From NCBI GenBank assembly GCA_902796335.1, contig CADBOI010000158.1, positions 1-37,432 of the forward strand: a stretch of 37,432 nt of DNA. Direction: 5' to 3'. The number at the start of each line of letters is the position of its first letter. The stretch's first letter is position 1. Positions 19,247-37,432 of the stretch are shown here, one piece after another. The DNA comes from an uncultured Spirochaetales bacterium (GTDB taxonomy: Bacteria; Spirochaetota; Spirochaetia; Sphaerochaetales; Sphaerochaetaceae). The position numbers and the translations under genes were made by a program. The notes under the pieces were generated by a model that was given only the letters and a program-made list of their open reading frames with translations, searched no databases and was not told the origin of the DNA.

Positions 19247-19299
19247 CAGGTGAAAGCCTCGTTTCAGTAAAATAGGGGATGACAATCCGCCTTGATGGT

Positions 19300-19314
19300 G
19301 ATAGACTGTCTATC
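19300..19314. promoter_or_regulatory. Perfect 15-bp palindrome immediately upstream of the LRR lipoprotein start codon
   Basis: GATAGAC-T-GTCTATC has 7-bp arms and a 1-nt centre, and ends 3 nt before the ATG at 19318. A 1-nt centre cannot form a hairpin loop, so this looks more like a dimeric protein-binding site. Confidence 0.3.
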
Positions 19315-19317
19315 GCC

Positions 19318-21714: not shown

Positions 21715-21719
21715 ATGCC

Positions 21720-22793
21720 ATGAACAGAAAACTTGTTTTACGTGTTCTTTTATTGGTTTCTCTTTTATATGAGCTGATGATTCTGGCCGGTTGCTCCAAC
21801 GAGGTCGTGGGAAAGCTCTCGGTCAGAATCTCGGATGCGAATTCCAGAGGAATCAATTCTTCGACACCCATGGATGTGGATCATTATTATTTGACCCTGT
21901 ACGACAAGGATCATATTGTCATTACGGATCATATCCTTTATCCCTCGGTCAGTGTCGTGGATTTCTCTCTTGAACCGGGCGAATACATTTTACAGGTAGA
22001 GGCAAAAAATGAGTATGGGTTTATCATCGGTGAAGGCTATTGTGATGCCGAGGTTGTAGCAGGGGAAAGAAACTGTGTGACAATCAACGTCACCGAGGTC
22101 GAAGGATACGGAGAATTCAATGTCTCCATCCTTGCTAACAGAGGACCTGATCTGAAACTTGTCATCTATGACGATGAGCATGAAATCCGTTACGAGGAGA
22201 AGCTCAACCACGAAAACGGTTTCTACTTTCCTGATCAGGCTGTGTCCCTGATGAACGGTTTCTACGTATTCGAAATAATCAGAACGGACAATAACAAAGT
22301 GATCGAAAGGGACACACTGAGGATTGTCAAAAGCAGCACTTCCACATATGAGGCCACGTTCACCTTCTATTCCGATGGAAGCATTTCGATTGTCAACGAG
22401 CTAATTTTAGTTCCTGAGATACTGATTACGATTGACCGTGATCAGGATTATCTGACGGCAAGTGCCAGTGTGCCAGGTTTGACGGACTATTCCTCATGCT
22501 GGTTCGTTGATGATGTTGCTTATGGATACTACGGAATCTACAAGGACCTCCGTTTGGATCTGGCTGATCTGGAAGTGGGCGAGCACGAGCTGATGTTCCT
22601 GATCAGAAAGGGTAGTCTGATCTGGTCACAATCGCAGTTCTTCACTGTTGATGAAACCGACGGAGATCTATGTCCCATGCAAGGGCAAAGATCTTCCCAT
22701 GCATGGGAAATCACATCCACCGACAGTGAAGTTACAACCTATACCTGCTCTGTCTGCGGGGCAACGAAGACTGTCAGCACGGAATCCGAATAG
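21720..22793 (+). CDS. Lipoprotein paralogous to the N-terminal ~355 aa of the LRR protein, with no LRR array
   Basis: The ATG at 21720 lies 6 nt after the upstream stop. Signal MNRKLVLRVLLLVSLLYELMILAGC. Blocks shared with 19318..21714: VRISDANSRGI, NGFY[LV]F..IRTD, ATFT[LF]YSDGS[LI]SIVNE, DYSS.W.VD, and HAW...C[TS]VCGATK. Confidence 0.8.
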   Translation: MNRKLVLRVLLLVSLLYELMILAGCSNEVVGKLSVRISDANSRGINSSTPMDVDHYYLTLYDKDHIVITDHILYPSVSVVDFSLEPGEYILQVEAKNEYGFIIGEGYCDAEVVAGERNCVTINVTEVEGYGEFNVSILANRGPDLKLVIYDDEHEIRYEEKLNHENGFYFPDQAVSLMNGFYVFEIIRTDNNKVIERDTLRIVKSSTSTYEATFTFYSDGSISIVNELILVPEILITIDRDQDYLTASASVPGLTDYSSCWFVDDVAYGYYGIYKDLRLDLADLEVGEHELMFLIRKGSLIWSQSQFFTVDETDGDLCPMQGQRSSHAWEITSTDSEVTTYTCSVCGATKTVSTESE

Positions 22794-23438: not shown

Positions 23439-23625
23439 TGGATGCATATCTGATGTTCTGGAACAGGCTACATGGTTGAGATCTGCGGGAATCGAGATTG
23501 TTATTGTACATCTTATGATCTTGTCATGTTGGAGTGGTTCTGAAGAATGTTGTTTTAAAAATGGCAGGATATGCAAAAAGATGACAATTGCTCCTCATTC
23601 CATTCATCATCCAGAATTGAAATTG

Positions 23626-23656
23626 AGAGACTGGCCTTTGTTGGTCTCTTTTCTTG
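23626..23656 (+). terminator. Short hairpin plus T-tract in the long GNAT-OYE spacer
   Basis: AGAGAC-12 nt-GTCTCT followed by TTTCTTG. It lies 190 nt downstream of the GNAT stop and 45 nt upstream of the OYE-like start. Confidence 0.35.
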
Positions 23657-23699
23657 AGGCATATTAACCTGTAGAATCTGTTAGTTAGGAGATATCGAA

Positions 23700-25052
23700 A
23701 TGAGTCTGCATGAGAAATTCAACTTTGAAACGCTCGCTGATATTAGAAAGAAGACCTCCGAGCTGGGGTTGGGAATCGGATTTGACGAGAATCTGGATGT
23801 CCTCGGAACCCCGCTTGCGGTGGGGAAACTGATATGTCCCAACAGATTCGCAGTACTTCCTATGGAAGGTTGTGACAGCAATCCTGACGGTTCTCCCTCT
23901 CAGCTGGTTCATGACAGATATCTCAAATATGCAGAAGGTGGCTTCGGTCTTATCTGGTTCGAGGCAAATGCCATTGTCCCTGAGGGAAGGGCTAACGAAC
24001 TTCAGATGATGCTCACAGCAAGCAATGTAAGTAAGTTCAGAGAACTTGTGCAGGAAGTCGATGATCTTTCGATGAAGAAACACGGATTCAAACCAATCAA
24101 GATCCTGCAGCTCACACATTCAGGACGATACAGCAGACCTGAAGGACATATTGCCCGTCCTCTGGTTCCGCAGCACGATCCGCTTCTGGACAAGGGAAGC
24201 GAGGTCATTGTTTCCGATGAATATCTGGACAGCCTTGTGGAGCGTTATGTAATCAGTGCCATGCTTGCCAAAGAAGCCGGATTTGATGGCGTGGATATTA
24301 AGGCATGCCACAGATATCTGATCAGCGAGCTATTGGCCTCACATACCAGAGAAGGCCGGTACGGTGGGTCTTTCGAGAACCGCACCAGACTGCTTCTTTC
24401 TGTAATCAGGGCCGTCAGGGAAAAACTGGGTGATGAATTCATTGTTGCAAGCAGATTCAATGTCTTCGATGCCCATCCTTATCCATACGGATTCGGGTGT
24501 GACAAGGACGACATGTGGAAGTTCGATCCGTCGGAGCCTGTCAGACTGGTCAGGGAAATGGTCGCTTCCGGTGTTGGTCTCCTTTCTAACTCCGGCGGAA
24601 ACCCGTATTACATCTACCCGCAGGTCACCAGACCGTTTGATAAGTCCAGCTACGGAATCCCTGTTCCTGAAGAACATCCGCTTGAAAGCGTGGACAGACT
24701 ATTCGTTCTTACAGAGGTTGTACAGAAAGCTGCGGGAAATGTGCCGGTAATCGGAAACGGATACAGCTGGCTGAGACAATTCCTACCCAATGCCGCTGCT
24801 TCAAACATCAGAGCCGGACGTTGTTCCATGGTTGGTCTGGGTCGTGAAAGCTTCGCCTATCCTATGGCACCGGCTGATGTCTTTGAGAAAGGAGCTATGG
24901 ATCCCAAGAAGTGCTGCATCACCTGCTCTCTGTGCACACAGATAATGCGTGATCATGGGACAACGGGATGTGTAATCAGAAACAGTGGTACATATATGCC
25001 ATTATATAAGAAATTCAACGCTGAAGCTGTTGAAAGGGAACATCGAAAATGA
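23700..25052 (+). CDS. Old Yellow Enzyme-family NADH:flavin oxidoreductase TIM barrel, ending in a [4Fe-4S] Cys motif and lacking the fused FAD/NAD(P)H domain
   Basis: RBS AGGAG. 450 aa with FAVLPMEGC, QLTHSGRYS and GFDGVDIKACHRYLISELLAS...GRYGGSFENRTRLLL (OYE/2,4-dienoyl-CoA reductase-type barrel). C-terminal C-x2-C-x2-C-x11-C (CITCSLCTQIMRDHGTTGC, nt 24915-24971). Confidence 0.85.
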   Translation: MSLHEKFNFETLADIRKKTSELGLGIGFDENLDVLGTPLAVGKLICPNRFAVLPMEGCDSNPDGSPSQLVHDRYLKYAEGGFGLIWFEANAIVPEGRANELQMMLTASNVSKFRELVQEVDDLSMKKHGFKPIKILQLTHSGRYSRPEGHIARPLVPQHDPLLDKGSEVIVSDEYLDSLVERYVISAMLAKEAGFDGVDIKACHRYLISELLASHTREGRYGGSFENRTRLLLSVIRAVREKLGDEFIVASRFNVFDAHPYPYGFGCDKDDMWKFDPSEPVRLVREMVASGVGLLSNSGGNPYYIYPQVTRPFDKSSYGIPVPEEHPLESVDRLFVLTEVVQKAAGNVPVIGNGYSWLRQFLPNAAASNIRAGRCSMVGLGRESFAYPMAPADVFEKGAMDPKKCCITCSLCTQIMRDHGTTGCVIRNSGTYMPLYKKFNAEAVEREHRK

Positions 25053-25828
25053 ACAGTAAGATTAAGAAGACAGCTCTGATCACAGGTTCCAGCAGAGGCA
25101 TTGGCCTTGCCATTGCACGGCAGCTCGGTCTTGACGGATTCAAGGTCGTCATGGTTGCAACCGGCTCCAGGGAGAAATACGCTGCTGCAGTCGAAAGCCT
25201 TGAGAAGCTTGGAATCGAAGTCGGTTATATCCAGGCTGACATATCGAAAACCGAGGATAGACATAGGATTGTCAGGGAGGCTGTCGAACTCTTCGGCCGG
25301 ATAGATGTGCTTGTGAACAATGCCGGTGTTGCCCCGAATGAGAGGGCTGATCTTCTGGACATGTCGGAAGAATCGTTTGACCGGGTCGTCGGAATCAATA
25401 CCAAGGGCAACATGTTCCTGACACAGGCAGTCGTAAAGCAGATGCTGAAGCAGAATCCGATTGAACAGCGCCGAGGTGTTATCGTGAATGTTTCATCATG
25501 CTCATCGGTTGTCTCATCCACCAACAGGGGCGAATACTGTGTCTCAAAGGCAGGAATCTCCATGCTTACCACACTGTATGCCGACAGGCTGGCGGGAGAG
25601 GGTATTCTAGTCCACGAGGTCAGGCCGGGTGTTATAGACACCGATATGACCAGTACGGTACATGAAAAATACGACAGACTCATAGAGCAGGGCGTATTCC
25701 CGATTGCCCGCTGGGGAAAGCCGGAAGATGTTGCAAATGCCGTCAGTGCCCTTGTTTCGGATAAGTTCCTGTATACCACAGGCGATTACGTCGACGTTGA
25801 CGGAGGTTTCCACATAAAGCGCCTATGA
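25049..25828 (+). CDS. Short-chain dehydrogenase/reductase (3-oxoacyl-ACP reductase-like)
   Basis: ATGA start/stop overlap with the upstream gene. 259 aa with TGSSRGIGLAIA (cofactor site), NNAG and S...YCVSK catalytic residues. Confidence 0.9.
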   Translation: MNSKIKKTALITGSSRGIGLAIARQLGLDGFKVVMVATGSREKYAAAVESLEKLGIEVGYIQADISKTEDRHRIVREAVELFGRIDVLVNNAGVAPNERADLLDMSEESFDRVVGINTKGNMFLTQAVVKQMLKQNPIEQRRGVIVNVSSCSSVVSSTNRGEYCVSKAGISMLTTLYADRLAGEGILVHEVRPGVIDTDMTSTVHEKYDRLIEQGVFPIARWGKPEDVANAVSALVSDKFLYTTGDYVDVDGGFHIKRL

Positions 25829-27744
25829 TTGAAATCGTCAAAGTCAACACATGCATAGTCGGAACCGGAGCTGCCGGTTACAATGCCGCATGCAGACTCA
25901 AGGTATTCGGAGTTGATGACATCCTTCTCATAAGTGAGAACCGTCTGGGCGGGACCAGCCGGAATACCGGAAGCGACAAGCAGACTTATTACAAACTCTC
26001 TCTGAGCGGAGATGATCCTGACAGTGTAAGGGAGATGGCGAGAACCTTGTTCGAAGGAAAGGCTGTGGACGGGGACATCGCACTTTGTGAGGCGGCGCTG
26101 AGTACCAGAAGCTTCATGCATTTGGTAGAATCCGGTCTTCCGTTTCCTACAAACAGATACGGCGAGTTCGTTGGCTACAAGACTGACCATGACCCGAGAA
26201 CCAGAGCTACTTCCATAGGACCTTATACTTCCAGAGCAATGACACAGGCTCTGGAACTTGAAGCAGATAATCTGGAAGTTCCCTTCAGAAACCATCTGCA
26301 GGTCATCCGTACTCTTTCGGACGGAAAAAAGTGCCTCGGACTTCTCTGTCTGGACAATACTAGCTCCGATGAGCCGCATTTTGTAGCAATCGAGGCCGCG
26401 AATGTGATTCTTGCAACCGGCGGACCTGCCGGTATGTATTTGAATTCGGTCTATCCTCAGAGCCAGCACGGAGCTTCGGGTCTTGCATTCGAGGCCGGTG
26501 TGAAAGGCAGGAACCTTACTGAATGGCAGTTCGGTCTGGCATCAGTAAGGCCGAGATGGAATGTAAGCGGGACTTACATGCAGGCTCTGCCAAGATTCGT
26601 ATCCACTGATGCCGACGGAAACGATGAGAAGGAGTTCCTCCTACAGTATTTTGATACCCCTGAGGATATGTTGTCCAAGGTCTTTCTGAAAGGCTATCAA
26701 TGGCCGTTCGATGTCCGTAAAATCGGTGACGGAAGTTCAATCATCGATATTCTGGTTTACATAGAGCTGTCGGAAGGCAGAAGGGTTTTCCTTGATTTTA
26801 CAACCGATCCTGTTAGCGGTGGATTTGATTTCGATGGCCTGAATCCTGAGGTATATGCTTATCTTTCAAAGGCAGGTGCGCTTGTCAGGACACCGATAAA
26901 GCGCCTTGAAATAATGAATCAGCCAGCCATAGACTTCTACAGGGATAAAGGTGTGGACCTTGAAACCGAAAGGCTTGAGATTTCCCTCTGTGCTCAGCAC
27001 AACAACGGCGGTCTTGATCTGGACGCCTGGTGGCAGAGCAACGTAGAAGGACTTTTCGTTGCAGGTGAGGTCGCGGGAAGCCACGGTGTTTACCGTCCCG
27101 GTGGTTCGGCATTGAATGCAGGGCAGGTAGGATCTCTCAGAGCCGCCACGTACATAGCTGCAAGACGCAGGGATGCCAGTGTGGACGAAAAACAATTCTC
27201 TATCCTTCTTAAGCAGGCTTCGGACGAGATGAAAGCCATCTGCGACCTGACGCGGGGAGATATCTCAAACGTTGAAAAGACAGAGAAACATTTCTGCAAT
27301 CTGATGAGCAGGTTCTGCGGTCCTATCAGAGATGAGAACAACATCCGTTCCTTCATAGATGAAATCAATACTGTTATTGCGGATTTCTGCGGTAAGGTGC
27401 GGTATTCGGACTATTCGGAACTGAAGAACGTATTCAAGCTTAGAGATAATCTGATTGCCCAGAAGTGCTATGCCCAAAGCATGCTTGATTACATCAGAGA
27501 AGGTGGGAAAAGCAGGGGCAGCGCTCTCTATCATGATGAAAGCGGACAGAAGCCCTATGGTTTTCTACCTGAGACTTTCAGATTCTGTCGTGATGACGGA
27601 TCCAAGGATTCCCTGATCCAGGAGATGTTCTATGTGGACGGAAAGTGTTCCTTCTTCTGGAGACCTGTAAGACAGATTCCAGACGATGACGATTTCTTTG
27701 AGAATGTCTGGCGAAGTTTCCGGGAGAACGGGAACGTCAACTGA
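25825..27744 (+). CDS. FAD-binding oxidoreductase of the fumarate reductase / succinate dehydrogenase / L-aspartate oxidase flavoprotein class
   Basis: ATGA start/stop overlap with the SDR gene. 639 aa with N-terminal dinucleotide fold IVGTGAAGYNAA, then ILATGGPAG and LFVAGEVAGSHGVYRPGGSALN. No Fe-S or membrane-anchor subunit gene lies adjacent. Confidence 0.8.
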   Translation: MIEIVKVNTCIVGTGAAGYNAACRLKVFGVDDILLISENRLGGTSRNTGSDKQTYYKLSLSGDDPDSVREMARTLFEGKAVDGDIALCEAALSTRSFMHLVESGLPFPTNRYGEFVGYKTDHDPRTRATSIGPYTSRAMTQALELEADNLEVPFRNHLQVIRTLSDGKKCLGLLCLDNTSSDEPHFVAIEAANVILATGGPAGMYLNSVYPQSQHGASGLAFEAGVKGRNLTEWQFGLASVRPRWNVSGTYMQALPRFVSTDADGNDEKEFLLQYFDTPEDMLSKVFLKGYQWPFDVRKIGDGSSIIDILVYIELSEGRRVFLDFTTDPVSGGFDFDGLNPEVYAYLSKAGALVRTPIKRLEIMNQPAIDFYRDKGVDLETERLEISLCAQHNNGGLDLDAWWQSNVEGLFVAGEVAGSHGVYRPGGSALNAGQVGSLRAATYIAARRRDASVDEKQFSILLKQASDEMKAICDLTRGDISNVEKTEKHFCNLMSRFCGPIRDENNIRSFIDEINTVIADFCGKVRYSDYSELKNVFKLRDNLIAQKCYAQSMLDYIREGGKSRGSALYHDESGQKPYGFLPETFRFCRDDGSKDSLIQEMFYVDGKCSFFWRPVRQIPDDDDFFENVWRSFRENGNVN

Positions 27745-29239
27745 GTTCTACCTTTAATCCATCGAGGAAGCGGGCATCTCCCTCTTCCGAATATATTCCG
27801 AAAAGTGTTCCGGTGAAACAGTTTCCGCACGTGCAGCCGGTGGTAAGTCCTGCATAGGAAATTCTGTCGACCAGAGTATCTGCGGCATAGAATTCATAGA
27901 ATTCCCTTGTGGCTACTATCCTGAGCTCGATTGTCTCATCTGCCCGACAGCTTTCAAGCTGTATTTCCCTTGTTGTAGCTCCCAGATCATGTATATGTCT
28001 GTAAACTGAAGCCGCGACATGCCCACCGGTCTTTGAGATTCCCATTCTGGCATGGTAGTTTGTCTGAAGCCATGTGCAGACACCTGCTGTTCCGCTGAGA
28101 CTTCCCAGATCAAGTCTTGCTGTGAAAATGCAGTTGAAATCAGACTGTCTGACTGCCATCATTGTTGGGTGTCCGAGCGGTGTCTCAAGTCTCCGGTCTC
28201 CGATCAAGGTGATGCTTGCAGTACTTTTTTCCTGAAGATAGCAGTTTTCTTTGGGAACTCTGATTTTCAGAACAGGGAAGTCTGAGAGTTCTTTTTTGAA
28301 ATCAACATATATGCCGGTATTATCATGCTGTTCCGATGGAACAATGTCCGGCATCTCAAGTTCCACATATCCGTTGTCTCCAATCACAGGCCATCCATCA
28401 TCAGCCCATGAGACAGGGGCAAGAAACGTCTCGCGTCCCAGCGTGGTCAGAGGGACATTGGTGTTCTTTCTTGTGGCAAGGAAGACTGCAATCCATCTGC
28501 CGTCGGGAAGTTCCAGCAGATCGGCATGTCCGGTGCACTGTATCGGATGTCCTTTCCTGCTTACATGAGAAAGAATCGGATTGTCCGGATTCTGCTCATA
28601 AGGTCCGTGAATGTCTTTGCTGCGAAGGACGCACACATGATGCCCTATACCCGTTCCGCCTTCGGCGATGATGAGGTAATAATATCCGTTTCTGAAATAG
28701 ATGTGAGGTGCCTCTGTAGAATGACCACCGCAGCTTCCTGCTATCGGTCTGAAATCTTCCAGCATCTTACCTGTAAGTGGGTCAATGAACGCTCCGAAAA
28801 TACCTCTCGCGTTCGTGTGTGGATCGATTTCGCCGTTGGAAGTGTAGAAGCAGCGCCCGTCATCGGTGAAGAAAAGGGACGGGTCAATTCCGGTTTTGCA
28901 GATGAAGGAGGGATCTGTCCACGGACCGTGTATGCTTTCAGATGAAACTACGAAATTGAACTTCAGATATTTGTTCGTCGTGACGACATAGAAGCGACCG
29001 TCATGGTGTCTGATTGTGGCGGCATAGAGCCCGAGGCTGTCCGGACTCCTGTCTAGATCAAGAGTGCCTTGGGTTTTGAGTACACTGTCGCAATAAGACC
29101 AGTTCACCAAATCCGTACTTTCCCAGATGGTCACACCCGGAAAATACTCGAATGTAGAGGTTGCAATGTAGAAATGTCCGTCAACATAGCAGATTGAAGG
29201 ATCAGGATTGAAGCCCGGGATTATTGGATTTCTGTACAT
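27737..29239 (-). CDS. Glycoside hydrolase family 43 (beta-xylosidase / alpha-L-arabinofuranosidase type) with a C-terminal beta-sandwich domain, cytoplasmic
   Basis: 500 aa. The N-terminus MYRNPIIPGFNPDPSICYVDGHFYIATSTFEYFPGVTIWESTDLVNW is the classic GH43 opening. No signal peptide. The 3' end overlaps the convergent FAD-protein gene by 8 nt. Confidence 0.9.
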   Translation of the reverse strand: MYRNPIIPGFNPDPSICYVDGHFYIATSTFEYFPGVTIWESTDLVNWSYCDSVLKTQGTLDLDRSPDSLGLYAATIRHHDGRFYVVTTNKYLKFNFVVSSESIHGPWTDPSFICKTGIDPSLFFTDDGRCFYTSNGEIDPHTNARGIFGAFIDPLTGKMLEDFRPIAGSCGGHSTEAPHIYFRNGYYYLIIAEGGTGIGHHVCVLRSKDIHGPYEQNPDNPILSHVSRKGHPIQCTGHADLLELPDGRWIAVFLATRKNTNVPLTTLGRETFLAPVSWADDGWPVIGDNGYVELEMPDIVPSEQHDNTGIYVDFKKELSDFPVLKIRVPKENCYLQEKSTASITLIGDRRLETPLGHPTMMAVRQSDFNCIFTARLDLGSLSGTAGVCTWLQTNYHARMGISKTGGHVAASVYRHIHDLGATTREIQLESCRADETIELRIVATREFYEFYAADTLVDRISYAGLTTGCTCGNCFTGTLFGIYSEEGDARFLDGLKVELS

Positions 29240-29373: not shown

Positions 29374-30330
29374 ATGAAAAGACGAAAGTCGGACGGGATT
29401 TCTGAATTAGTGATTCGTGAGCCGTTGTCCAAACGCATGAGGAAAGACTGGAGCAAGAACAAAGGTCTGTATTTTATGTTCCTTCCTGTTCTTGTCTACT
29501 ATATCATCTTCCATTATGGACCGATGGCCGGTCTTCTGATTTCATTCCAGAACTACAAGCCAATCAAGGGTATCTTCGGGAGCAAGTGGGTAGGACTGAA
29601 GAACTACAGAGATTTCTTTCAGAGCTACTATTTCTGGCGTGTTCTGAGAAATACTCTGAAGATAAGTATCACCAACCTGATTTTCAGCTTCCCGATGCCG
29701 ATTATCCTTGCTCTGATGATCAACGAGCTCCGCACAAGGTATTTCAAGAAGATGGTTCAGACCATAACCTATCTGCCGCACTTCGTGTCGATTGTCGTCA
29801 TCATCTCCATGCTTTCCGATCTGACATCCAGAAACGGTGCCATTACGACTTTCCTGGCACACTTCGGATTCGAACAGCAGACAATGCTGCAGAATCCGAA
29901 ACTGTTCCTTCCCCTTTATATCATCTCAGGAATCTGGCAGAACATCGGTTGGAACTCGATCATCTACCTTTCGGCAATCATCGGAATAGATGCTCAGCTT
30001 TATGAGGCTGCGAAGATCGACGGAGCAGGAAAGCTGAGACAGCTGTTCTCCGTGACGCTTCCCTGTCTGTTCCCGACAATCATCATCATGTTCATCCTGC
30101 AGATAGGAAAGATGTTCAATGTCGGACATGAGAAGATACTCCTCATGTACAACCCGCTTACAATCGACGTTGCTGATGTCATCAACACATATGTTTACAG
30201 TGAAGGTCTTCTGAACATGAACTGGAGCTATTCGGCAGCAGTAGGCATGTTCAACTCCGTCGTGAGTTTCCTCCTGGTCTGGGGAACAAACAAGTTCAGT
30301 AAAAAACTGAGCGGCTCGAGTCTTTGGTAA
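29374..30330 (+). CDS. Carbohydrate ABC transporter permease (LplB/YteP-type)
   Basis: RBS GGGAGAG. 318 aa. The N-terminus ...KNKGLYFMFLPVLVYYIIFHYGPMAGLLISFQNYKP is typical of LplB-type permeases. EAA-loop region AAKIDGAGKLRQLFSVTLP. Confidence 0.9.
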   Translation: MKRRKSDGISELVIREPLSKRMRKDWSKNKGLYFMFLPVLVYYIIFHYGPMAGLLISFQNYKPIKGIFGSKWVGLKNYRDFFQSYYFWRVLRNTLKISITNLIFSFPMPIILALMINELRTRYFKKMVQTITYLPHFVSIVVIISMLSDLTSRNGAITTFLAHFGFEQQTMLQNPKLFLPLYIISGIWQNIGWNSIIYLSAIIGIDAQLYEAAKIDGAGKLRQLFSVTLPCLFPTIIIMFILQIGKMFNVGHEKILLMYNPLTIDVADVINTYVYSEGLLNMNWSYSAAVGMFNSVVSFLLVWGTNKFSKKLSGSSLW

Positions 30331-30340
30331 GGAGGTGAAC

Positions 30341-31225
30341 ATGTCAGACAAACCCATGAAAGTCAGATATACAAACGGAGAGAAGGCTCTGCACGTGATT
30401 ATCGTAGTCGTCTGTGCGTTTCTGTCTCTTGCAGTTCTTCTTCCGATGCTCAACATCCTTTTCGGAGCATTCTCTGATCCATATGAGGTCATGAAACATT
30501 CCGGACTGTTTCTCTATCCTGTCAGTCCCACCTTCTACAATTTCAAGCTGGTTTTCCAGAATCCGAGCATACTGACCGGATATCTGAACACGATTTTCGT
30601 TGTTGTCGTAGGAACGGGCCTGAATGTCTTCCTTTCGTTGATCGGAGCATACGTTCTTTCCAGAAAGGGAGCAGCCCTGGTGAAGGTCTTCACACTGATG
30701 ATTGTATTCACCATGTATTTCAACGGCGGAACAATTCCCACATATCTGGTCGTCGAGTCCCTCGGACTTATAAATTCCAGATGGGCTCTGATTCTTCCGG
30801 GTGCAATCAGCACATTCAATCTGATCGTCATGAGAACCGCAATGGCCCAGATTCCGGACAGTCTGCCTGAATCAGCCATGATAGACGGCGCGACTCATCC
30901 CCAGGTGCTATTCATGATCATGACACCGCTGTGTAAGGCCACGGTAGCAGTCATTGTCCTGTATTATGCGGTTGCCCACTGGAACTCCTGGTTCCCGGCC
31001 TTCCTGTATCTGCGTGACAAGACAAAGTATCCTCTTCAGCTGATACTCAGACAGATTCTGTTCCAGGAAGAGACGAACAGCATGGCTGCCGAGAACCTTG
31101 CCCTGTCAAGTGAAGCTGTCAAATACGCAACGATTGTTGTGGCAACGGTTCCGATTCTTCTTGTCTATCCGTTCCTTCAGAGATATTTCGTCAAGGGCGT
31201 TATGGTCGGCGCTGTAAAGGGTTGA
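30341..31225 (+). CDS. Carbohydrate ABC transporter permease (LplC/YtcP-type)
   Basis: The ATG at 30341 follows AAGGAGG; the track start at 30335 is a GTG inside the RBS spacing. 294 aa with EAA loop ESAMIDGATHPQVLFMIMTP. Confidence 0.9.
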   Translation: MSDKPMKVRYTNGEKALHVIIVVVCAFLSLAVLLPMLNILFGAFSDPYEVMKHSGLFLYPVSPTFYNFKLVFQNPSILTGYLNTIFVVVVGTGLNVFLSLIGAYVLSRKGAALVKVFTLMIVFTMYFNGGTIPTYLVVESLGLINSRWALILPGAISTFNLIVMRTAMAQIPDSLPESAMIDGATHPQVLFMIMTPLCKATVAVIVLYYAVAHWNSWFPAFLYLRDKTKYPLQLILRQILFQEETNSMAAENLALSSEAVKYATIVVATVPILLVYPFLQRYFVKGVMVGAVKG

Positions 31226-31228
31226 GCA

Positions 31229-31987
31229 ATGATCGGATTCGGGTTGGTAAGTGCAACATTCAAAGGTCTCTCTGTACGGAAAGTGCTTGAAATTGCACAT
31301 AATGCTGGTCTTCAGGCCATCGAATGGAGCGAGAACCACCACATTCCTTCAGGCGATGTGTCCTTTGCCGCCGAAGTCGGGAATCTCACACGTGATGCAG
31401 GCATCGCTATTGCAGGCTACGGATCCTATTTCCGTCTTGGTCAGGGTATGGACTTGACTGCGAGTCTGAATACCGCCAGGAGCCTTGGTGCTGACCAGGT
31501 CCGTATCTGGGCTGGGACCAAAGCCTCTGCAGATGTTTCCAAAGAGGAGAGAAAGGCACTTGAGAGAGAGCTTTCCGATGTCTGCCTCATTGCTGCGGAC
31601 ATGGGTATTGTCCTGAACCTGGAATGGCACAAGAACACACTGACGGATACAAATGAATCAGCCCTTGCATTGCTTCAGAATGTTGACTGTCCGAATCTGA
31701 GAACACTCTGGCAGCCGACACAGGCCCTTACAGAGGAGCAGCGTGAGGCCGGTCTGAAGATGATTCTTTCTTATCTCTCTTATCTGCATGTCTATCACTG
31801 GGACAAAACTGGAAGGAGACCTCTGGAGGAGGGCAGAACACAGTGGGAACGCTATTTCTGTGTTCTCAATGAAAACAAAGACTATTATGCGCTTCTGGAA
31901 TTCGTAAAGGACGATTCCGAAGATCAGTTTTATAAGGACTCGGAAGTCCTGAAGGAGATGCTTGGCTATGGCAGATTTGCACATTGA
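31229..31987 (+). CDS. Xylose isomerase-like TIM-barrel protein (sugar phosphate isomerase/epimerase family)
   Basis: It starts 3 nt after the permease stop. 252 aa: ...LEIAHNAGLQAIEWSENHH...LGADQVRIWAG...VLNLEWHKNTLTD...LHVYHWD, the pattern of alternating metal-ligand His/Glu/Asp strands seen in this fold family. Confidence 0.75.
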   Translation: MIGFGLVSATFKGLSVRKVLEIAHNAGLQAIEWSENHHIPSGDVSFAAEVGNLTRDAGIAIAGYGSYFRLGQGMDLTASLNTARSLGADQVRIWAGTKASADVSKEERKALERELSDVCLIAADMGIVLNLEWHKNTLTDTNESALALLQNVDCPNLRTLWQPTQALTEEQREAGLKMILSYLSYLHVYHWDKTGRRPLEEGRTQWERYFCVLNENKDYYALLEFVKDDSEDQFYKDSEVLKEMLGYGRFAH

Positions 31988-33191
31988 CTGTTTTGACATG
32001 ATTAATCCGTTCGTAATCGCCTCCAGCCCCGCTACAAGAGGTGCGGACAATGTGATAAAAAGCTCATCCTGCAAACCGGGTGCTGTTACAATGCGCAACT
32101 ACGGCCACGGCATGGGTGGCGGCGGATTCTTCTATCCGTCATTCGATGCGGTTCTCAAGGGCCAGCCGGCTTTCCATTCCCACGCGGTAGGCAAACAGCT
32201 TCCGGATACCATGAGTTCTCTGGACGAGTACTGTGAAGAGGTGAGAAAGGCCCGCAGGGAAATGTATCCCGAGACAAAGCTCTGGGCTTCGGTCGGACAT
32301 TATCATGATATCGAGAAATATCCTGACTGGAAGGAGAGGTGGGTCCGCGAGGCCAAGGATGTTGTGGCAGCCGGTGCAGATGCAGTAGAGCTTCACTTCA
32401 ACACCCCAGGTGTCGCCACAGCATCCGACAGACAGTTCAACTATTACCAGCTGGTTGCAACATGCACAAAGATGATCAAGGCTGCCGTTCCCGGAACTCC
32501 GGTAATGGTCAAACTTGCCATTGAGGATTGTGATTGTCTTACCAGCATCCGCGAGGCTGTAGCAGCCGGAGCCGATGCAGTAGGGCCGACGGCAAGATGG
32601 AAGGCTTTCTATTTCGATCTCGACTGGAAGACAACACAGCCAAGACCGGGTTCGGGCTACGGCGGAACACAGGCCAATCCGCTTGTGTGCTTTGAAGTTG
32701 CCGATGCCCGCTCCAGGGGTATAACCATTCCCATGTATGCCGGCGGAGGAGTGTTCTCCTATGATCAGGCCCTGCGCTATATCATGGCGGGATCGGACAT
32801 GGTCCAGTTCGGTGCAATCGCATGTTCGGGTGGAACCAAGGTCTGCGAGAAGATCATCAGACAGTGCTCGGAATGGATGGATAAGAACGGATATAAGAGC
32901 GTGAAGGACCTGAAGGGTGAGGCCCTCAAGCTCTTCAATATGGACAGTTCCTTTGCAAAAAGACGTCAGGACAAGCTGGGTGAGGCTTACAGACTCAGAG
33001 ATACCGATCCTGAGAAATGCATAGGCTGCGGACGCTGTACTGATGTTTGCTGGTACAAGGGAATCGAGTTGAGGAACAAGAAAGCCTGTAAGACGGAAAA
33101 CTGCATTGGTTGCGGTTACTGTTTCCAGGTCTGTCCAACCAAGGCGCTTGAGGTCGATGCAGCAGGCATTCTGAAAAGTGCCTGGGATTGA
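31968..33191 (+). CDS. Dihydroorotate/dihydropyrimidine dehydrogenase-like flavin TIM barrel with a C-terminal 2x[4Fe-4S] ferredoxin domain
   Basis: The ATG at 31968 (track start 31962 is a TTG) overlaps the upstream gene by 20 nt. 407 aa with N-terminal NPFVIASSPATRG, then VELHFNTPG, VMVKL and MYAGGGV (DHOD-fold landmarks). Two ferredoxin motifs follow: CIGCGRCTDVC and CIGCGYCFQVCP (nt 33018-33137). Confidence 0.8.
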   Translation: MADLHIDCFDMINPFVIASSPATRGADNVIKSSSCKPGAVTMRNYGHGMGGGGFFYPSFDAVLKGQPAFHSHAVGKQLPDTMSSLDEYCEEVRKARREMYPETKLWASVGHYHDIEKYPDWKERWVREAKDVVAAGADAVELHFNTPGVATASDRQFNYYQLVATCTKMIKAAVPGTPVMVKLAIEDCDCLTSIREAVAAGADAVGPTARWKAFYFDLDWKTTQPRPGSGYGGTQANPLVCFEVADARSRGITIPMYAGGGVFSYDQALRYIMAGSDMVQFGAIACSGGTKVCEKIIRQCSEWMDKNGYKSVKDLKGEALKLFNMDSSFAKRRQDKLGEAYRLRDTDPEKCIGCGRCTDVCWYKGIELRNKKACKTENCIGCGYCFQVCPTKALEVDAAGILKSAWD

Positions 33192-33203: not shown

Positions 33204-34328
33204 ATGGAGACAAGAGTCCTGCTATGCGGAATGGGCGGTTACGGCGAGAACTACATAAAAGAATATCTTGAGAGGGATGTTCTTGGTTCTGTTCTTGTCG
33301 GTATTGCCGATCCGTTCGCACAGAAAAGCCACCTGTATCCCGATGTTGTGGCAAAGGGAATTCCGGTCTATGACTCAATGGACAGTTTTTATGCAAAGGA
33401 CAGAGCGGATCTTGTCATAATTTCATCTCCGATTCATACCCATTACCCCTATGTGATGTCGGCTCTGGACCATGGCAGCAACGTACTTACGGAAAAGCCC
33501 GTCTGTTTTGATCCGTTTCATTTCAGCGAGATGATCGAGAAGAGCAGCCGAACAGGTCTGTTCGTAGCGGTTGGCTATCAGCTCTGCTTCTCAAAGGATG
33601 TCCTTGCTCTGAAGAGGGACATTCTGGATGGAGTGTATGGGAAGCCGGTCAGGATGAAGACCATCAGGCTCATGAGAAGGAACGACATCTATTACAGCAG
33701 ATCATCCTGGGCCGGGGCCATGTACTGCAATGGTGCACCGGTCTATGATTCCCCGTTTACAAATGCCTGTGCCCATCAGTTCCAGAACATGGTTTTCCTT
33801 CTGGGCAGAGAGATGGATGCGAGCGTAACAACATCCTCATGTAAAGGTATACTGGCAAAAATCAGACCGAATATCACAAACTGTGATACCGTAAGTCTTG
33901 AGTTTGTCACTGAAGACGGAGTTGTTCTCCAGTACCATGCATCACATGCTGTTGATGAGGCCAAGATCGGTCCTCTCAGCGTCTACGAGTTTGAGAAAGG
34001 CACTGTGGAACAGGGTGAGAACGGATTTGTGGGAAGACTGGATGACGGAACCCTGTTGGACTACACCTGTCTGGATAAGGGCGAACGTCTTGAAAAGCTT
34101 TGGGAAAGTGTCCGGTGTGTACAGGAGGGCCGGATTCCGGTCTGTACCTTGAAGACGGCGTTCGAGCATACCCATGCAGTGCTTATGGCGCAGCAGATGG
34201 GTGTCCGGGATCTGTCTGCAGGGGCCATCGGAAAAAAGGATGACAAGGGCAGCGTCTATTACACGATGGATGGTCTGAGTCAGTCGTTACAGAATGCCTA
34301 TGCGCAGTGGCGCATTGCAGAAATATGA
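33204..34328 (+). CDS. Gfo/Idh/MocA family NAD(P)-dependent oxidoreductase
   Basis: RBS GAGGTGGGGAG. 374 aa with N-terminal Rossmann VLLCGMGGYG, the family-typical EKP motif (VLTEKPV) and a C-terminal alpha/beta substrate domain. Confidence 0.85.
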   Translation: METRVLLCGMGGYGENYIKEYLERDVLGSVLVGIADPFAQKSHLYPDVVAKGIPVYDSMDSFYAKDRADLVIISSPIHTHYPYVMSALDHGSNVLTEKPVCFDPFHFSEMIEKSSRTGLFVAVGYQLCFSKDVLALKRDILDGVYGKPVRMKTIRLMRRNDIYYSRSSWAGAMYCNGAPVYDSPFTNACAHQFQNMVFLLGREMDASVTTSSCKGILAKIRPNITNCDTVSLEFVTEDGVVLQYHASHAVDEAKIGPLSVYEFEKGTVEQGENGFVGRLDDGTLLDYTCLDKGERLEKLWESVRCVQEGRIPVCTLKTAFEHTHAVLMAQQMGVRDLSAGAIGKKDDKGSVYYTMDGLSQSLQNAYAQWRIAEI

Positions 34329-34367: not shown

Positions 34368-35942
34368 ATGAAGAAAGCATTGTTAGTTTTGCTAGCAGTT
34401 CTTCTGATTGCAGGACCTGTCTTCGCACAGGGCGCAGCAGAAGCCAAGACAAACAACGGGCCGGATGAGTTGACCTATTGGGCAACACTGAACGCTGCCA
34501 TCACAGCCAACAGCTTCGATGAGCTGCCGTACTGGCAGGAGCTTATGGCAAGAACGAACACAAAGGTCACATTCCAGCATGTTGCTGCCGGCAACAATGT
34601 TGCCGAGGCCTTCTCTGTTCTTACAGCATCCCGCAGATCCATGCCCGATATCATCGAGTATCAGTGGATCAATTACGCAGGTGGTCCCCAGAAGGCAATC
34701 GATGACGGTGTCATCATTGCATTGAACGATTATCTGGATTATGCTCCGAACCTCAAGAAGTTCCTGGAGACACATCCTGATATCGCCAACATGGTCAAGA
34801 CCGACCAGGGATACTACTACTGCTTCCCGTTCCTCAGAGGCGACAGCTATGAGAACAACACACTCCTTTACACGGAAGGCTGGGTATACAGGACAGATCT
34901 TCTTGCAAAGGCCGGTGTAGATGCTATCCCCGAGACTCCGGATGAGCTCTATGATGCCTTGGTCAAAATCAAGAAATCCGGACTTGTGGAGTGGCCGATT
35001 GCCATCAGAAGCGACCATATCAACAGAGTTTTTGCTCCTGGTTTTGACTCATGGGGAGAGAACGAAGGTATCTATGTGGACAACGGCGTGGTCAAGAGCG
35101 GTCTGATTGAGCCACAGAGATATGATTATCTGAAGTTCCTCAACAAGCTCTATACAGAAGGCCTTCTTTACAGCGACTATCTCACTCTGGACAAGAAGGG
35201 AATGGGTAACCTGATCCTCAACTCAACCACAGCCATCGGATATGCTCCCGGCGGAAGCGGAATCGGAACATGGCTCCCGAAGATGCAGAAGGATGATCCG
35301 TCTGTCACAATGTCCTCAGCAAAGCCGCTCTCACCTGTGAAGGGAAGACTCTCTATGTTCGCAAAGATGGATACCATCTACTCCAACGCCGGTGCATCAG
35401 CCGCCATCACAACAAGCTGCAAGAACATCGAAGCTGCAATGAGACTTCTTGACTACCAGTTCAGCAAGGAAGGACATCTTCTGGCCAACTACGGTATCGA
35501 GGACGTTTCCTACAAGATCGAGAACGGTGAGCCGGTTTACCTCGAGGCTGTTCTCAATGCCGACGGAGTCCTTGATTCCACAAAGGCATGGCAGTACATG
35601 AGATTCACCATCAACGGACCGTTTGTCCAGGAGCCGAAGGCACAGAAGTTCTACTATGCAGTTCCTGAGCTCCAGGAAGCTCTTGTCCTCTGGTCACAGA
35701 CAAACTACGGCGAGCACGATATGTCTCTGATCACCGTTTCTTCGGATCACGCTGATGAGTATGCAAAGATTGTCAACGACGTCAAGACATATGCAAAGGA
35801 GTGGGAGAACAAGTTCATCACAGGCGTAACTCCGCTCAATGAGAAGACATTCGCAGAGTATCAGGCCGGTCTCAAGGGTCTGAAGCTCGAGCAGGCTGTC
35901 GCATGGAGACAGGAAGCATACAACGCTTACGTCTCAAGATAA
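34368..35942 (+). CDS. Extracellular solute-binding protein of a carbohydrate ABC importer (LplA-type, large SBP)
   Basis: RBS AAGGAG. 524 aa with signal peptide MKKALLVLLAVLLIAGPVFAQG and the length and pattern of LplA/YtcQ-type SBPs (...ELTYWATLN...PYWQELMARTN...). Confidence 0.9.
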   Translation: MKKALLVLLAVLLIAGPVFAQGAAEAKTNNGPDELTYWATLNAAITANSFDELPYWQELMARTNTKVTFQHVAAGNNVAEAFSVLTASRRSMPDIIEYQWINYAGGPQKAIDDGVIIALNDYLDYAPNLKKFLETHPDIANMVKTDQGYYYCFPFLRGDSYENNTLLYTEGWVYRTDLLAKAGVDAIPETPDELYDALVKIKKSGLVEWPIAIRSDHINRVFAPGFDSWGENEGIYVDNGVVKSGLIEPQRYDYLKFLNKLYTEGLLYSDYLTLDKKGMGNLILNSTTAIGYAPGGSGIGTWLPKMQKDDPSVTMSSAKPLSPVKGRLSMFAKMDTIYSNAGASAAITTSCKNIEAAMRLLDYQFSKEGHLLANYGIEDVSYKIENGEPVYLEAVLNADGVLDSTKAWQYMRFTINGPFVQEPKAQKFYYAVPELQEALVLWSQTNYGEHDMSLITVSSDHADEYAKIVNDVKTYAKEWENKFITGVTPLNEKTFAEYQAGLKGLKLEQAVAWRQEAYNAYVSR

Positions 35943-35963: not shown

Positions 35964-35995
35964 GCATTGGATTGGCCTTCGGGCCAGTCCGATGC
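35964..35995 (+). terminator. Strong stem-loop after the SBP gene (terminator or mRNA-stabilising hairpin)
   Basis: GCATTGGATTGGCC-TTCG-GGCCAGTCCGATGC forms a 14-bp stem with two G.U pairs and a UUCG tetraloop. It is followed by TGTTCTG, a weak U-tract. Confidence 0.55.
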
Positions 35996-36035
35996 TGTTC
36001 TGTCAATAAACGGTGTGAAAAAAAGGAAAACGGAC

Positions 36036-37432
36036 ATGACTGAATTTGAGATTCTGAAGACGCATCTCAAGGACGATTTCAAAGAACTGGACGGAAAGAC
36101 TCTCCTGCAGCACTTCGCTGAGAGGAAGAAACCCGTCTACCTGTTTCAGGCCACGGAGGCATCGGAAATAGAGGATGACGGCATTGTCGCCGATGCCGAG
36201 AAGGTCATGCAGCATGACATCTTCGGACATAAGTTCAATGGTCCGATTGACTGGATGTTCAACCCAACCACGGAAACCAGCAGAGACAATGAGTGGAGCT
36301 GGTCGCTTTTCCGCACCATTTATTGGCAGAGTCTTGCAAGAGCCTATGCCGTCACGAAGGATGAGAAATACACCAGGGAGTTCCTTTCCCAGATGCACTC
36401 GTTCCGTGAAGCCTGGCCTGCAGACGAATTCATCAAAGACACGACCTTCGTGCCAAAACAGCCGTTTCCGGGGACAGCATGGAGAACCATAGAGACCGGA
36501 ATCAGGGTTTATACGACATGGCTTCCGGTTTTCGAGATCTTCAGGAGTTCTCCTGTGTGGACAATTGATGACCTTGCAGGCTTCCTTCTTGGAATAAGGG
36601 ACCATGCGTTGTTCCTTATGGGCCATTATTCCAACCATGACAGATCCTCCAACTGGCTGAGCATGGAGACCAGCGCATTGCTGCAGATTTCGATAATGTT
36701 CCCTGAATTCGCTGAGTCCGGGCAATGGTTCGACACGGCCTACGGACGGGTAATGCATGAAATCCGTTACTGCTTCTCAGACAACGGTGTGCACATGGAG
36801 AAAACTCCAATCTATCACATGGTTGCATCGATAGCATTTGCCCAGGCCATAGTCCTTTGCAGCAAAAACGGAATCTACGTTCCGGACTATGCGTGGGAAG
36901 TGATAAGAAGAAGTGCTAAATACATCTGCTCGCTGGTAAAGCCGGATCTCTCGACACCTATGATAGGTGATGCCGACAGGGATGATCTGACAACCAGAAA
37001 GGCAGATACTTCCATCTACGAGGGCATGAATCTTTCGTTCTTCCCAAGGGATCTCAATGAAATCCGTGCCTACATGAACTGGATGTATCAGCTTTTCGGT
37101 GACGAGCAGTTCCGCTATTTCGGAACACTGCGCAAGGAAGGGGACGAACCGAAGGCCAGAGACTACAAGTATTCTGAGGAAGGTGTATATGTGATGCGCA
37201 CTGGATGGGGTCCTGATGCGGATTACCTGTGCACTCATGCAACTCAGCTGGAACGGGGAGAAAGGTCCACCCATTCGCATAACGACTGCATGCATGCCGA
37301 ACTTACTCTGTGCGGAGAGGATGTTCTGGTTGACAGCGGACGCTACATCTACAGATCCTCCATATGGAAGGACTGGAGGTCCTATTTCGTTTCCGCACTG
37401 GCCCACAACACTCTCTATGTGGACGACCATGA
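36036..37432 (+). CDS. Heparinase II/III-like (polysaccharide lyase-type) protein, 3'-truncated by the window edge, cytoplasmic
   Basis: This ORF is not in the track. I translated by hand from the ATG at 36036 and found 465 codons with no stop up to the window end. Sequence: MTEFEILKTHL...WSWSLFRTIYWQSLARAYAVTKDEKY...AWRTIETGIRV...NHDRSSNWLSMETSALL...HSHNDCMHAELTLCGEDVLVDSGRYIY...LAHNTLYVDDH. The pattern matches an alginate-lyase-like N-domain plus Hepar_II_III motifs. No signal peptide. Confidence 0.85.
   Translation, partial: MTEFEILKTHLKDDFKELDGKTLLQHFAERKKPVYLFQATEASEIEDDGIVADAEKVMQHDIFGHKFNGPIDWMFNPTTETSRDNEWSWSLFRTIYWQSLARAYAVTKDEKYTREFLSQMHSFREAWPADEFIKDTTFVPKQPFPGTAWRTIETGIRVYTTWLPVFEIFRSSPVWTIDDLAGFLLGIRDHALFLMGHYSNHDRSSNWLSMETSALLQISIMFPEFAESGQWFDTAYGRVMHEIRYCFSDNGVHMEKTPIYHMVASIAFAQAIVLCSKNGIYVPDYAWEVIRRSAKYICSLVKPDLSTPMIGDADRDDLTTRKADTSIYEGMNLSFFPRDLNEIRAYMNWMYQLFGDEQFRYFGTLRKEGDEPKARDYKYSEEGVYVMRTGWGPDADYLCTHATQLERGERSTHSHNDCMHAELTLCGEDVLVDSGRYIYRSSIWKDWRSYFVSALAHNTLYVDDH

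Follow-up and report, generated by a model that had tools for sequence, protein, structure and literature searches.

A translationally coupled trio of an OYE/Fe-S barrel, an SDR and a complex-II-type flavoprotein in a spirochaete: a candidate two-subunit flavoenzyme with a possible role in sugar-acid catabolism

Organization of the trio

We focus here on three adjacent genes in a stretch of 37,432 nt, the forward strand of contig CADBOI010000158.1 from an uncultured Spirochaetales bacterium (GCA_902796335.1), which is referred to below as the window. The three open reading frames (ORFs) lie on the + strand and encode an old yellow enzyme (OYE)-type barrel of 450 residues with a putative iron-sulfur (Fe-S) site, a short-chain dehydrogenase/reductase (SDR) of 259 residues and a flavin adenine dinucleotide (FAD) protein of 639 residues. 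They are coupled by ATGA overlaps at 25049-25052 (OYE/SDR) and 25825-25828 (SDR/FAD), which we read directly and which agree with an earlier reading of this DNA from its sequence (the original prediction). An AGGAG ribosome-binding site at 23687-23691 lies 8 nt 5' of the ATG of the OYE gene; in the 261-bp leader, a search for a riboswitch or operator returned no Rfam family and no palindrome. Each ORF has hundreds of full-length homologues, and the three are thus real genes and not chance ORFs. The features of the trio are as follows.

23439..23699, + strand: leader of the OYE gene, 261 bp (sequence read; weak sigma-70-like matches only)
23700..25052, + strand: OYE-type TIM-barrel flavoprotein with a C-terminal four-cysteine motif (PF00724, Foldseek)
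24300..24317, + strand: active-site segment K201-A-C-H204-R-Y206 (phmmer alignment to 3GR7)
24912..24971, + strand: putative [4Fe-4S] motif C(C)-x2-C-x2-C-x11-C, C406/C409/C412/C424 (alignment with enzymes of the 2,4-dienoyl-CoA reductase (DCR) type)
25049..25828, + strand: classical SDR, 259 residues, translationally coupled on both sides (PF13561/PF00106, NCBIfam PRK12745)
25825..27744, + strand: SdhA/FrdA-fold FAD protein, 639 residues, predicted to hold its FAD non-covalently (PF00890, Foldseek)

Conservation as a unit and a natural fusion

In a collection of species-representative genomes, 373 stretches encode a relative of the OYE protein; 80 of these loci were fetched, and the trio was counted in the 57 that extend at least 4.5 kb downstream of the OYE gene. 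An orthologous SDR gene lies near the OYE gene in 57/57 (55-85 % identity), and an FAD gene follows the OYE-SDR pair on the same strand in 54 (95 %; 43-79 % identity), so that the trio is conserved as a unit; the lack of such conservation would, by its own terms, have refuted the original prediction. The SDR gene comes directly after the OYE gene in 32 loci, and in 24 a gene of ~1 kb, a Zn-dependent alcohol dehydrogenase (Zn-ADH) where annotated, stands between them. Three loci have OYE and SDR genes without an adjacent FAD gene. In one of these, from a Spirochaetia genome otherwise lacking an FAD gene at the locus, a 33-residue remnant of the FAD-protein C-terminus directly follows the SDR gene (L064:12230-12328), which points to recent loss or to an assembly problem. 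Among the carriers are Spirochaetes, Lachnospiraceae, Oscillospiraceae, Erysipelotrichia, Anaerolineaceae, Lentisphaerae and Tepidanaerobacter.

No finding speaks more strongly for joint action of the OYE/Fe-S and FAD proteins in one enzyme than P0278, a natural fusion of the two that came from a profile search. This protein of 1084 residues has the OYE/Fe-S module at residues 1 to ~435 and the FAD module at 440-1082; its OYE part has KVSHGYL, with the Lys discussed below kept, and CCVTCSRCTEFMRQGVQTGC. It is present in two independent assemblies, identical at 1081/1084 residues, with the junction in frame, and its gene has an AP_endonuc_2 gene upstream and an SDR gene downstream. Judged from these sequences, the two proteins very probably form one enzyme containing flavin mononucleotide (FMN), a [4Fe-4S] cluster and FAD. 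The fusion locus (L091:1-7986) also encodes an SSF-family transporter, a class-V aminotransferase and proteins of 527 and 770 residues without a Pfam match.

The OYE/Fe-S protein

PF00724 matches the OYE protein at residues 37-257 only (106 bits against a cut-off of 27), and the AlphaFold model (pLDDT 79) has a complete OYE barrel. In Foldseek, the best E-values, ~1e-20, are to OYEs of the YqjM class, with 2-naphthoyl-CoA reductase (NCR) and DCR also matched; the longest alignments (414-431 columns) are to the Fe-S OYEs NCR and E. coli DCR (6QKG, 1PS9). The FMN-contact residues Q137, R252 and R382, identified from the alignment to 3GR7, are invariant in 32 homologues. By its modelled fold and predicted FMN contacts, the protein is thus a member of the OYE / Oxidored_FMN superfamily. 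Also invariant in the same homologues are C58, K201, C203, H204, R205 and Y206. Lys201 takes the place of the first His of the OYE pair (KACHRYL, against HAAHGYL in the YqjM class), a replacement that had been noticed in the original prediction and that proves to be a fixed property of the family; H204 and Y206 are retained. The OYE protein thus has neither a His-His nor a His-Asn pair for a substrate carbonyl.

The four cysteines of C406-x2-C409-x2-C412-x11-C424 are likewise invariant in the 32 homologues and share alignment columns with cysteines of two full-length DCR-type enzymes, where the motif reads C-x2-C-x3-C-x11-C. The earlier equation of this motif with the DCR-group site is thus borne out in position, while the spacing differs by one residue in these two references. 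We regard the motif as a putative [4Fe-4S] site. As previously stated, the barrel stops soon after it: the protein ends 26 residues, one helix, past C424, whereas the DCR-type references continue into a dinucleotide domain with the GGGxAG motif. Fused C-terminal FAD/NAD(P)H domains are absent from the OYE protein, whose length is conserved among the homologues listed.

These missing domains are the sole pointer to a truncated pseudogene of a full-length DCR-type enzyme in a fortuitous arrangement. The conserved length and sequence refute that reading and leave it next to no probability. The 450-residue form is kept at 61-90 % identity in the 80 genome loci, which come from Spirochaetes, many Bacillota, Anaerolineae and Lentisphaerae, and at least 120 database clusters match it, nearly all near-full-length, mostly of 449-461 residues and at 64-100 % identity. 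In the plasmid collection, a 72 % match from Subdoligranulum is followed by full-length DCR-type enzymes that are ~28 % identical. No remnant of the missing reductase domain was found downstream of the OYE gene, and here too the original prediction stands. Bilirubin reductase was tried as an identity and rejected, with 65.5 bits against a cut-off of 425 for NCBIfam NF045592 (bili_reduct_N).

The FAD protein

PF00890 matches the FAD protein weakly, and its closest solved structure by sequence has an E-value of only ~1e-6. Its AlphaFold model (pLDDT 80) has the four-domain fold of the complex-II flavoproteins, including the C-terminal helical domain, and Foldseek places SdhA/FrdA first (6VAX, 1QLB and 1KF6; E ~1e-25, TM 0.65-0.68), followed by the alpha subunit of APS/PAPS reductase (AprA) and then by NadB. 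The leading matches are all subunits that dock an Fe-S subunit. Neither the window nor the related loci examined contain a gene for an SdhB/FrdB/AprB-type Fe-S partner, and the OYE protein is the only conserved Fe-S candidate beside the FAD protein. Neither Pfam nor fold search detected a separate NAD(P)H-binding domain in the FAD protein, and the FMN of the OYE protein is thus the only plausible site for NAD(P)H. FMN_bind (PF04205) was sought in the three trio proteins and in the fusion P0278, with no match.

In the comparison with E. coli FrdA, for the cap domain based on an alignment of 23 % identity, the carboxylate-anchoring residues H355 and R390 of FrdA are retained as H392 and R424, and H232, T244, E245 and R287 are replaced. 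The loop with His44, which binds FAD covalently in FrdA, is deleted, and the GxGxxG motif is present. The family has invariant motifs of its own, namely GTSRNTGSDKQTYYKL, YKTDHDPR..RATS and GYQWPFDVRK. An exhaustive profile search returned 709 representatives of 50 %-identity clusters at E <= 1e-30, and the source names of all the members seen are 'FAD-binding protein'. Fumarate reductase and aspartate oxidase (NadB) were considered as identities and rejected; the NCBIfam models score far under their cut-offs and the key residues are absent. The original prediction had placed the protein in a class with fumarate reductase, hydroxycinnamate reductase and Cgr2-like reductases; membership in the soluble Cgr2 / hydroxycinnamate-reductase / flavocytochrome type does not survive the four-domain complex-II fold and the loss of most fumarate-site residues. 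Soluble flavocytochromes, UrdA and KstD are missing from the top 50 matches of the fold search, and the loci gave no aromatic-acid context.

The SDR

The translation of the SDR contains TGxxxGxG, NNAG and YxxxK, with the catalytic Ser-Tyr-Lys. The protein scores 336.8 bits with NCBIfam PRK12745, above the cut-off of 250; the name of this model, '3-ketoacyl-ACP reductase', is a generic label only. The closest structure is 4DA9. KduD (2-dehydro-3-deoxy-D-gluconate 5-dehydrogenase, TIGR01832) is rejected as an identity at 153 bits against a cut-off of 339, and the scores for FabG and gluconate 5-dehydrogenase are likewise far under the cut-offs.

Genomic contexts and the substrate class

All ORFs of the loci were clustered and the representatives annotated. 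In the commonest context (~28 loci), genes for a 2-keto-3-deoxy-6-phosphogluconate (KDPG) aldolase, a 2-keto-3-deoxygluconate (KDG) kinase, an isomerase-like orphan of ~430 residues (the cluster c12 described below), a LivJ-type ABC transporter, an IlvD/Edd dehydratase, LacI and an epimerase-like AP_endonuc_2 protein are followed by those for the OYE protein, Zn-ADH, SDR and FAD protein. The type of context seen in the window, found in rumen spirochaetes, combines the trio with GH43, AP_endonuc_2 and Gfo/Idh/MocA and with genes for a sugar ABC transporter, a PreA-like FMN/Fe-S protein and a heparinase II/III-like protein, to which a close relative of the window (L018) adds LacI, AP_endonuc_2, Gfo/Idh/MocA and a monosaccharide ABC transporter directly upstream. 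A third context pairs the trio with a TctC/TctA carboxylate transporter, and a fourth with Amidohydro_2, an AAE permease and AraC, while in Blautia the trio stands with DUF2264, 2-Hacid_dh, Gfo/Idh/MocA, c12, GH1 and GH88. In L015 and L016, the transporter operon includes the genes for KDPG aldolase and KDG kinase, with LacI and the trio following just downstream; in L063, this pair of genes comes directly after the FAD gene, with c12 between the SDR and FAD genes.

Certain families recur across these contexts. Transporters of the TTT, AAE, TRAP and ABC types flank the trio, and AP_endonuc_2 proteins are found beside it in clusters c21, c10 and c48 and in L018 and L091; the E. coli island described below encodes one too. 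In L021, L045 and L085, the trio is again flanked by the Gfo/Idh/MocA cluster c17 and adjoined by the heparinase-like cluster c25, and c25 adjoins it in L082 as well. GH43 (cluster c20), on the other hand, occurs in 6 sources, the window and 5 close rumen relatives only. The association with carbohydrate loci that the original prediction had drawn from GH43 thus holds in that the trio lies in sugar and sugar-acid loci, but the GH43 link itself is confined to these close relatives. A comparison of the amino-acid-type and TTT binding proteins with the PDB gave no informative ligand. The cluster c12 (L058:15233-16564, L001:6689-7954 and 14 other loci) is an orphan family of 420-445 residues tightly linked to the trio; it has no significant Pfam match and no PDB sequence match, and resembles the sulfoquinovose isomerase SftI and the central domain of AraA only weakly.

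What the contexts have in common is the uptake of carboxylates or sugars, a chemistry of keto sugars (Gfo/Idh/MocA, AP_endonuc_2) and an end point of the KDG type. Since the recurrent partners are carboxylate transporters, Gfo/Idh/MocA, AP_endonuc_2, the IlvD/Edd dehydratase, KDG kinase and KDPG aldolase, a sugar-acid substrate, possibly an unsaturated uronate, is more likely than hydroxycinnamates. Unsaturated uronates and hydroxycinnamates had both been listed in the original prediction, and the latter lose ground with no aromatic-acid context to support them. Candidate substrates would be 4,5-unsaturated uronates, which are enoates and are suggested by the contexts with a lyase or GH88; others would be hexuronates or keto-aldonates, as well as aldonates or glucosaminate.

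A sister FAD family in E. coli and Rhizobium

Sister proteins of 693 residues in E. coli and Rhizobium are 36-37 % identical to the FAD protein and share its invariant motifs; no OYE gene lies near their genes in the E. coli and Rhizobium stretches examined. In E. coli, the sister gene is part of an island between ytfB and rplI (L086, NZ_CP135245.1 179692-188615) that encodes TetR, an SDR, an AP_endonuc_2 protein, an enoyl-CoA hydratase, a CoA-transferase, the 693-residue FAD protein (36 %) and a TRAP transporter. The island is present in 1447/5426 complete E. coli genomes at a coverage of >=80 %. The binding protein of the island's TRAP transporter has matches to 4N91, 4MHF and 4N15, TRAP proteins solved by structural genomics (E 1e-60 to 6e-72). 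Of these, 4N91 and 4MHF are binders of D-glucuronate / D-galacturonate, and 4N15 is the template for the glucuronate-binding STM3169 (PMC7660916). Because the island TRAP binding protein is close to hexuronate binders, the lineage of the FAD protein is independently tied to hexuronate-like acids.

Neighbouring genes in the window

The genes upstream of the trio, which encode surface proteins with BspA-type leucine-rich repeats and a GNAT acetyltransferase, are unrelated to it, and the GH43 gene downstream is convergent; the three genes thus make up a transcription unit of their own where a carbohydrate locus begins on its left side. At their 3' ends, the FAD gene (+) and the GH43 gene (-) share 8 bp (27737-27744), with no terminator-like hairpin between them. 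The genes that follow are listed here.

27737..29239, - strand: GH43 glycoside hydrolase, convergent to the FAD gene (PF04616 + PF17851)
29374..31225, + strand: two ABC sugar-transporter permeases (PF00528 on the first ORF; clusters c14, c13)
31229..31987, + strand: AP_endonuc_2 (xylose-isomerase-like TIM barrel) protein (PF01261)
31962..33191, + strand: PreA-like DHO_dh barrel with two ferredoxin-type clusters (PF01180 + Fer4)
33204..34328, + strand: Gfo/Idh/MocA oxidoreductase (PF01408)
34368..35942, + strand: ABC solute-binding protein SBP_bac_1 (PF01547)
35967..37432, + strand: heparinase II/III-like protein, running off the window end (PF16889 + PF07940)

The second permease ORF (30335-31225) has no Pfam match, and the permease call for both ORFs rests on clustering; both clusters, c14 and c13, are found repeatedly with the trio, and in the Blautia locus c13 is represented by a called BPD_transp_1 gene. 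The PreA-like protein, which scores 120 bits with NCBIfam PreA, under the cut-off, is a second orphan FMN/Fe-S module in the locus, with no PreT-type NAD(P)H/FAD partner nearby. Its cluster, c22, is found in 6 sources (the window and 5 loci), together with AP_endonuc_2 and Gfo/Idh/MocA genes. Two - strand ORFs (36003-36758 and 36777-37430) have no Pfam match and are probably spurious, the heparinase II/III-like ORF being the real gene. Upstream, two + strand genes for lipoprotein-like surface proteins (19279-21714 and 21684-22793) overlap, and their N-terminal ~330 residues are clearly paralogous; the product of the former has BspA-type leucine-rich repeats, and that of the latter has none.

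Proposed mechanism and alternatives

From the observed gene anatomy, conservation, fusion, folds, conserved motifs and gene contexts, we infer cofactor binding, a physical complex, a direction of electron flow and a substrate class as follows. The OYE/Fe-S and SdhA/FrdA-fold proteins would be two subunits of one soluble oxidoreductase, in which FMN, the [4Fe-4S] cluster and FAD form a wire. By analogy with the NADH:fumarate and NADH:acrylate reductases, NAD(P)H would be oxidised at the FMN of the OYE subunit and the electrons would pass singly via the cluster to FAD. There, a carboxylate-bearing, sugar-derived intermediate, anchored by H392 and R424, would undergo a two-electron reaction beside the carboxylate, either a redox change at C2 or, in an enoate (for example a 4,5-unsaturated uronate), reduction of the C=C bond. 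The SDR, probably of the NADP(H) type, would reduce or oxidise a neighbouring carbonyl, and the product would feed KDG kinase and KDPG aldolase. We favour this chain tentatively, at a probability of roughly 0.45. It draws on the conservation of the trio, the P0278 fusion, the alignment of the four cysteines with the DCR ligands and the retained FMN contacts, and on an FAD protein whose fold is of an Fe-S-docking type, yet which has no SdhB-type gene in the loci examined. The acid nature of the substrate is suggested by the retention of H392/R424, the transporters that flank the trio and the similarity of the sister TRAP binder to hexuronate binders, and the KDG end point by L015, L016 and L063, whose operons contain genes for KDG kinase and KDPG aldolase. 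The original proposal of a split, re-wired ene-reductase with an SDR step is thus retained as a split Fe-S flavoenzyme system with an SDR, while the OYE barrel as the site of ene reduction is not established. Nor is it established that the FAD protein simply stands in for the reductase domain, as the original prediction had assumed; in the NADH:fumarate and NADH:acrylate reductases, NADH is oxidised at the OYE-like domain and the substrate is reduced at FAD_binding_2.

Several observations weigh against this chain. The fusion is known from one lineage only, and the contexts are heterogeneous, so that the substrate class is only an inference. With H232 and R287 of FrdA replaced in the 23 %-identity alignment, enoate reduction at the FAD site would need another proton donor. 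The sister FAD proteins have no OYE gene in the stretches examined, and the FAD fold can thus work with another electron partner. Finally, the active site of the OYE protein is strongly conserved (K201, H204, R205, Y206 and C58), with the Tyr proton donor kept, a pattern that suits a substrate site no less than one for NAD(P)H alone. This last point leads to an arrangement resembling the Bai enzymes and running in the direction of the original prediction, which we consider rather unlikely, in which the OYE protein would be an ene-reductase acting on a sugar or cyclitol enone, with the FAD protein as a dehydrogenase that oxidises another intermediate of the pathway and feeds FMN via the [4Fe-4S] cluster in a redox-neutral couple. 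The enone would arise by SDR or Gfo/Idh/MocA oxidation followed by dehydration or elimination of the AP_endonuc_2 type, and these potential enone-makers, Gfo/Idh/MocA and AP_endonuc_2, do recur beside the trio. The retention of Tyr206 and one His, with K201, R205 and C58 invariant, and the use of the FMN barrel as the substrate site in DCR, BilR and BilV speak for such an arrangement, and the FAD relatives of E. coli and Rhizobium, which lack an OYE gene in the stretches examined, would fit a dehydrogenase with another acceptor in respiring bacteria. However, we found no described precedent for an SdhA-type flavoprotein feeding an OYE, the described enzymes that combine OYE and FAD_binding_2 modules run the opposite way, and two substrates would have to balance stoichiometrically.

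The same sister proteins, which function without an adjacent OYE gene, and the three loci with OYE and SDR but no adjacent FAD gene are also what would be expected if the three gene products were independent enzymes of one pathway that form no complex, the OYE/Fe-S protein reduced by ferredoxin or flavodoxin and the FAD protein acting alone like NadB. Stand-alone OYE barrels do exist, as in short-form BilR, which is presumably reduced by ferredoxin or flavodoxin (NCBIfam bili_reduct_N). The in-frame fusion, on the other hand, joins exactly these two proteins, their genes are adjacent in 95 % of loci across phyla, and among the annotated neighbour clusters no ferredoxin or flavodoxin gene is conserved beside the trio, which makes independent enzymes improbable. 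In a further account, the FAD site would act in the manner of NadB and oxidise an amino or hydroxy sugar acid at its C-N or C2-OH bond, with the OYE/Fe-S protein carrying the electrons off. In this scheme, D-glucosaminate or an aldonate, for example, would become a 2-keto-aldonate, to be reduced by the SDR and dehydrated by IlvD/Edd to KDG. In favour of the scheme, the fold search counts NadB among the relatives, and the residues that anchor the alpha-carboxylate are kept; LivJ-type (amino-acid-type) binding proteins belong to the dominant architecture, IlvD-like dehydratase, KDG kinase and KDPG aldolase are present, and some loci have 2-Hacid_dh genes or an M20 deacylase-family peptidase, a serine-dehydratase-like protein and an aminotransferase. 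This scheme rests purely on context, however, the window and many loci lack the dehydratase and the LivJ-type transporter, and the acceptor at the OYE protein would have to be NAD(P)+, which is uphill, or some enone; we give it little credence.

Taken more broadly, the trio could be central to a widespread and so far undescribed anaerobic pathway that leads from sugar acids (uronates, unsaturated uronates, aldonates) to KDG, with the key step carried out by a new class of two-subunit flavoenzyme (OYE/[4Fe-4S] plus complex-II-type flavoprotein) and with a cluster-free sister system in ~1/4 of E. coli genomes. We regard this as a doubtful proposition, albeit one with consequences. If true, it would add a new build of two-flavin, one-cluster reductase, in which a complex-II-type flavoprotein has as its partner an OYE/Fe-S barrel in the place of an SdhB-type subunit or of a fused NAD(P)H domain, and it would fill a gap in the sugar-acid catabolism of abundant gut and rumen anaerobes (Blautia, Ruthenibacterium, Hungatella, Lacrimispora, Flavonifractor, Subdoligranulum and Sphaerochaeta-like spirochaetes). 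The curated libraries give generic names only, and because all the members seen are annotated no more closely than as 'NADH:flavin oxidoreductase', '3-ketoacyl-ACP reductase' and 'FAD-binding protein', the trio is invisible to pathway reconstruction. No description of the gene set was found in the literature searched, in line with the original remark that the combination was not recognisable as a described pathway. Cultured carriers (Blautia producta, Ruthenibacterium lactatiformans 585-1, Marasmitruncus massiliensis, Faecalispora jeddahensis, Subdoligranulum variabile and Tepidanaerobacter sp. GT38) and the E. coli sister island render the trio experimentally testable.

Comparison with known systems

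The architecture is a variant of the known two-flavin, one-cluster reductases and embodies no new principle; its pathway, on the other hand, may be a new one. Its nearest described counterparts are the soluble NADH:fumarate reductase of K. pneumoniae (FRD) and NADH:acrylate reductase of V. harveyi (ARD), in which NADH is oxidised by an OYE-like domain and an alpha,beta-unsaturated carboxylate is reduced by FAD_binding_2, with an FMN_bind domain that holds its flavin covalently as the mediator between them. Like these, the trio has an OYE-like FMN module and an FAD_binding_2 module, which would act together through a predicted one-electron mediator; in P0278 the two are fused in the same order, OYE first. 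The mediator, however, would be the four-Cys [4Fe-4S] motif instead of an FMN_bind domain with covalent FMN, the modules are separate proteins in almost all genomes, and an SDR is co-encoded. The FAD module is also of the complex-II type, with the C-terminal helical domain, and most of the fumarate-site residues are absent. The substrate of the described enzymes is a carboxylate, and that of the trio may be one too.

The DCR-type enzymes (E. coli DCR, clostridial enoate reductases, BaiCD/BaiH, the long forms of BilR/BilV, 2-naphthoyl-CoA reductase and trimethylamine dehydrogenase) likewise have a barrel followed by a four-Cys motif at the same position, and their cofactor set of FMN, [4Fe-4S] and FAD is the one predicted for the OYE/FAD pair. 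Their FAD, on the other hand, is held by fused, glutathione-reductase-like two-dinucleotide domains, whereas that of the trio would come from the unrelated SdhA/FrdA-like fold; the OYE protein is ~26-28 % identical to them, with the first active-site His changed to Lys. In DCR, BilR and BilV, electrons flow from NAD(P)H to FAD, the cluster, FMN and then the substrate, with the FMN barrel as the substrate site, and the direction that we favour for the trio is thus the reverse of theirs, and also of the one assumed in the original prediction. Short-form BilR offers a parallel as a member of the OYE/DCR group in which the flavodoxin-like and NAD(P)H domains found at the C-terminus of its long form are absent, but the OYE protein lacks its HGDR motif and has another gene context and partner. 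Finally, the FAD protein has in common with the complex II superfamily (SdhA/FrdA, NadB, AprA) the four-domain fold, GxGxxG and the His/Arg pair, and is set apart from it by its own invariant motifs and by a gene neighbourhood in which the OYE/Fe-S barrel stands where an SdhB/FrdB/AprB-type partner gene is missing.

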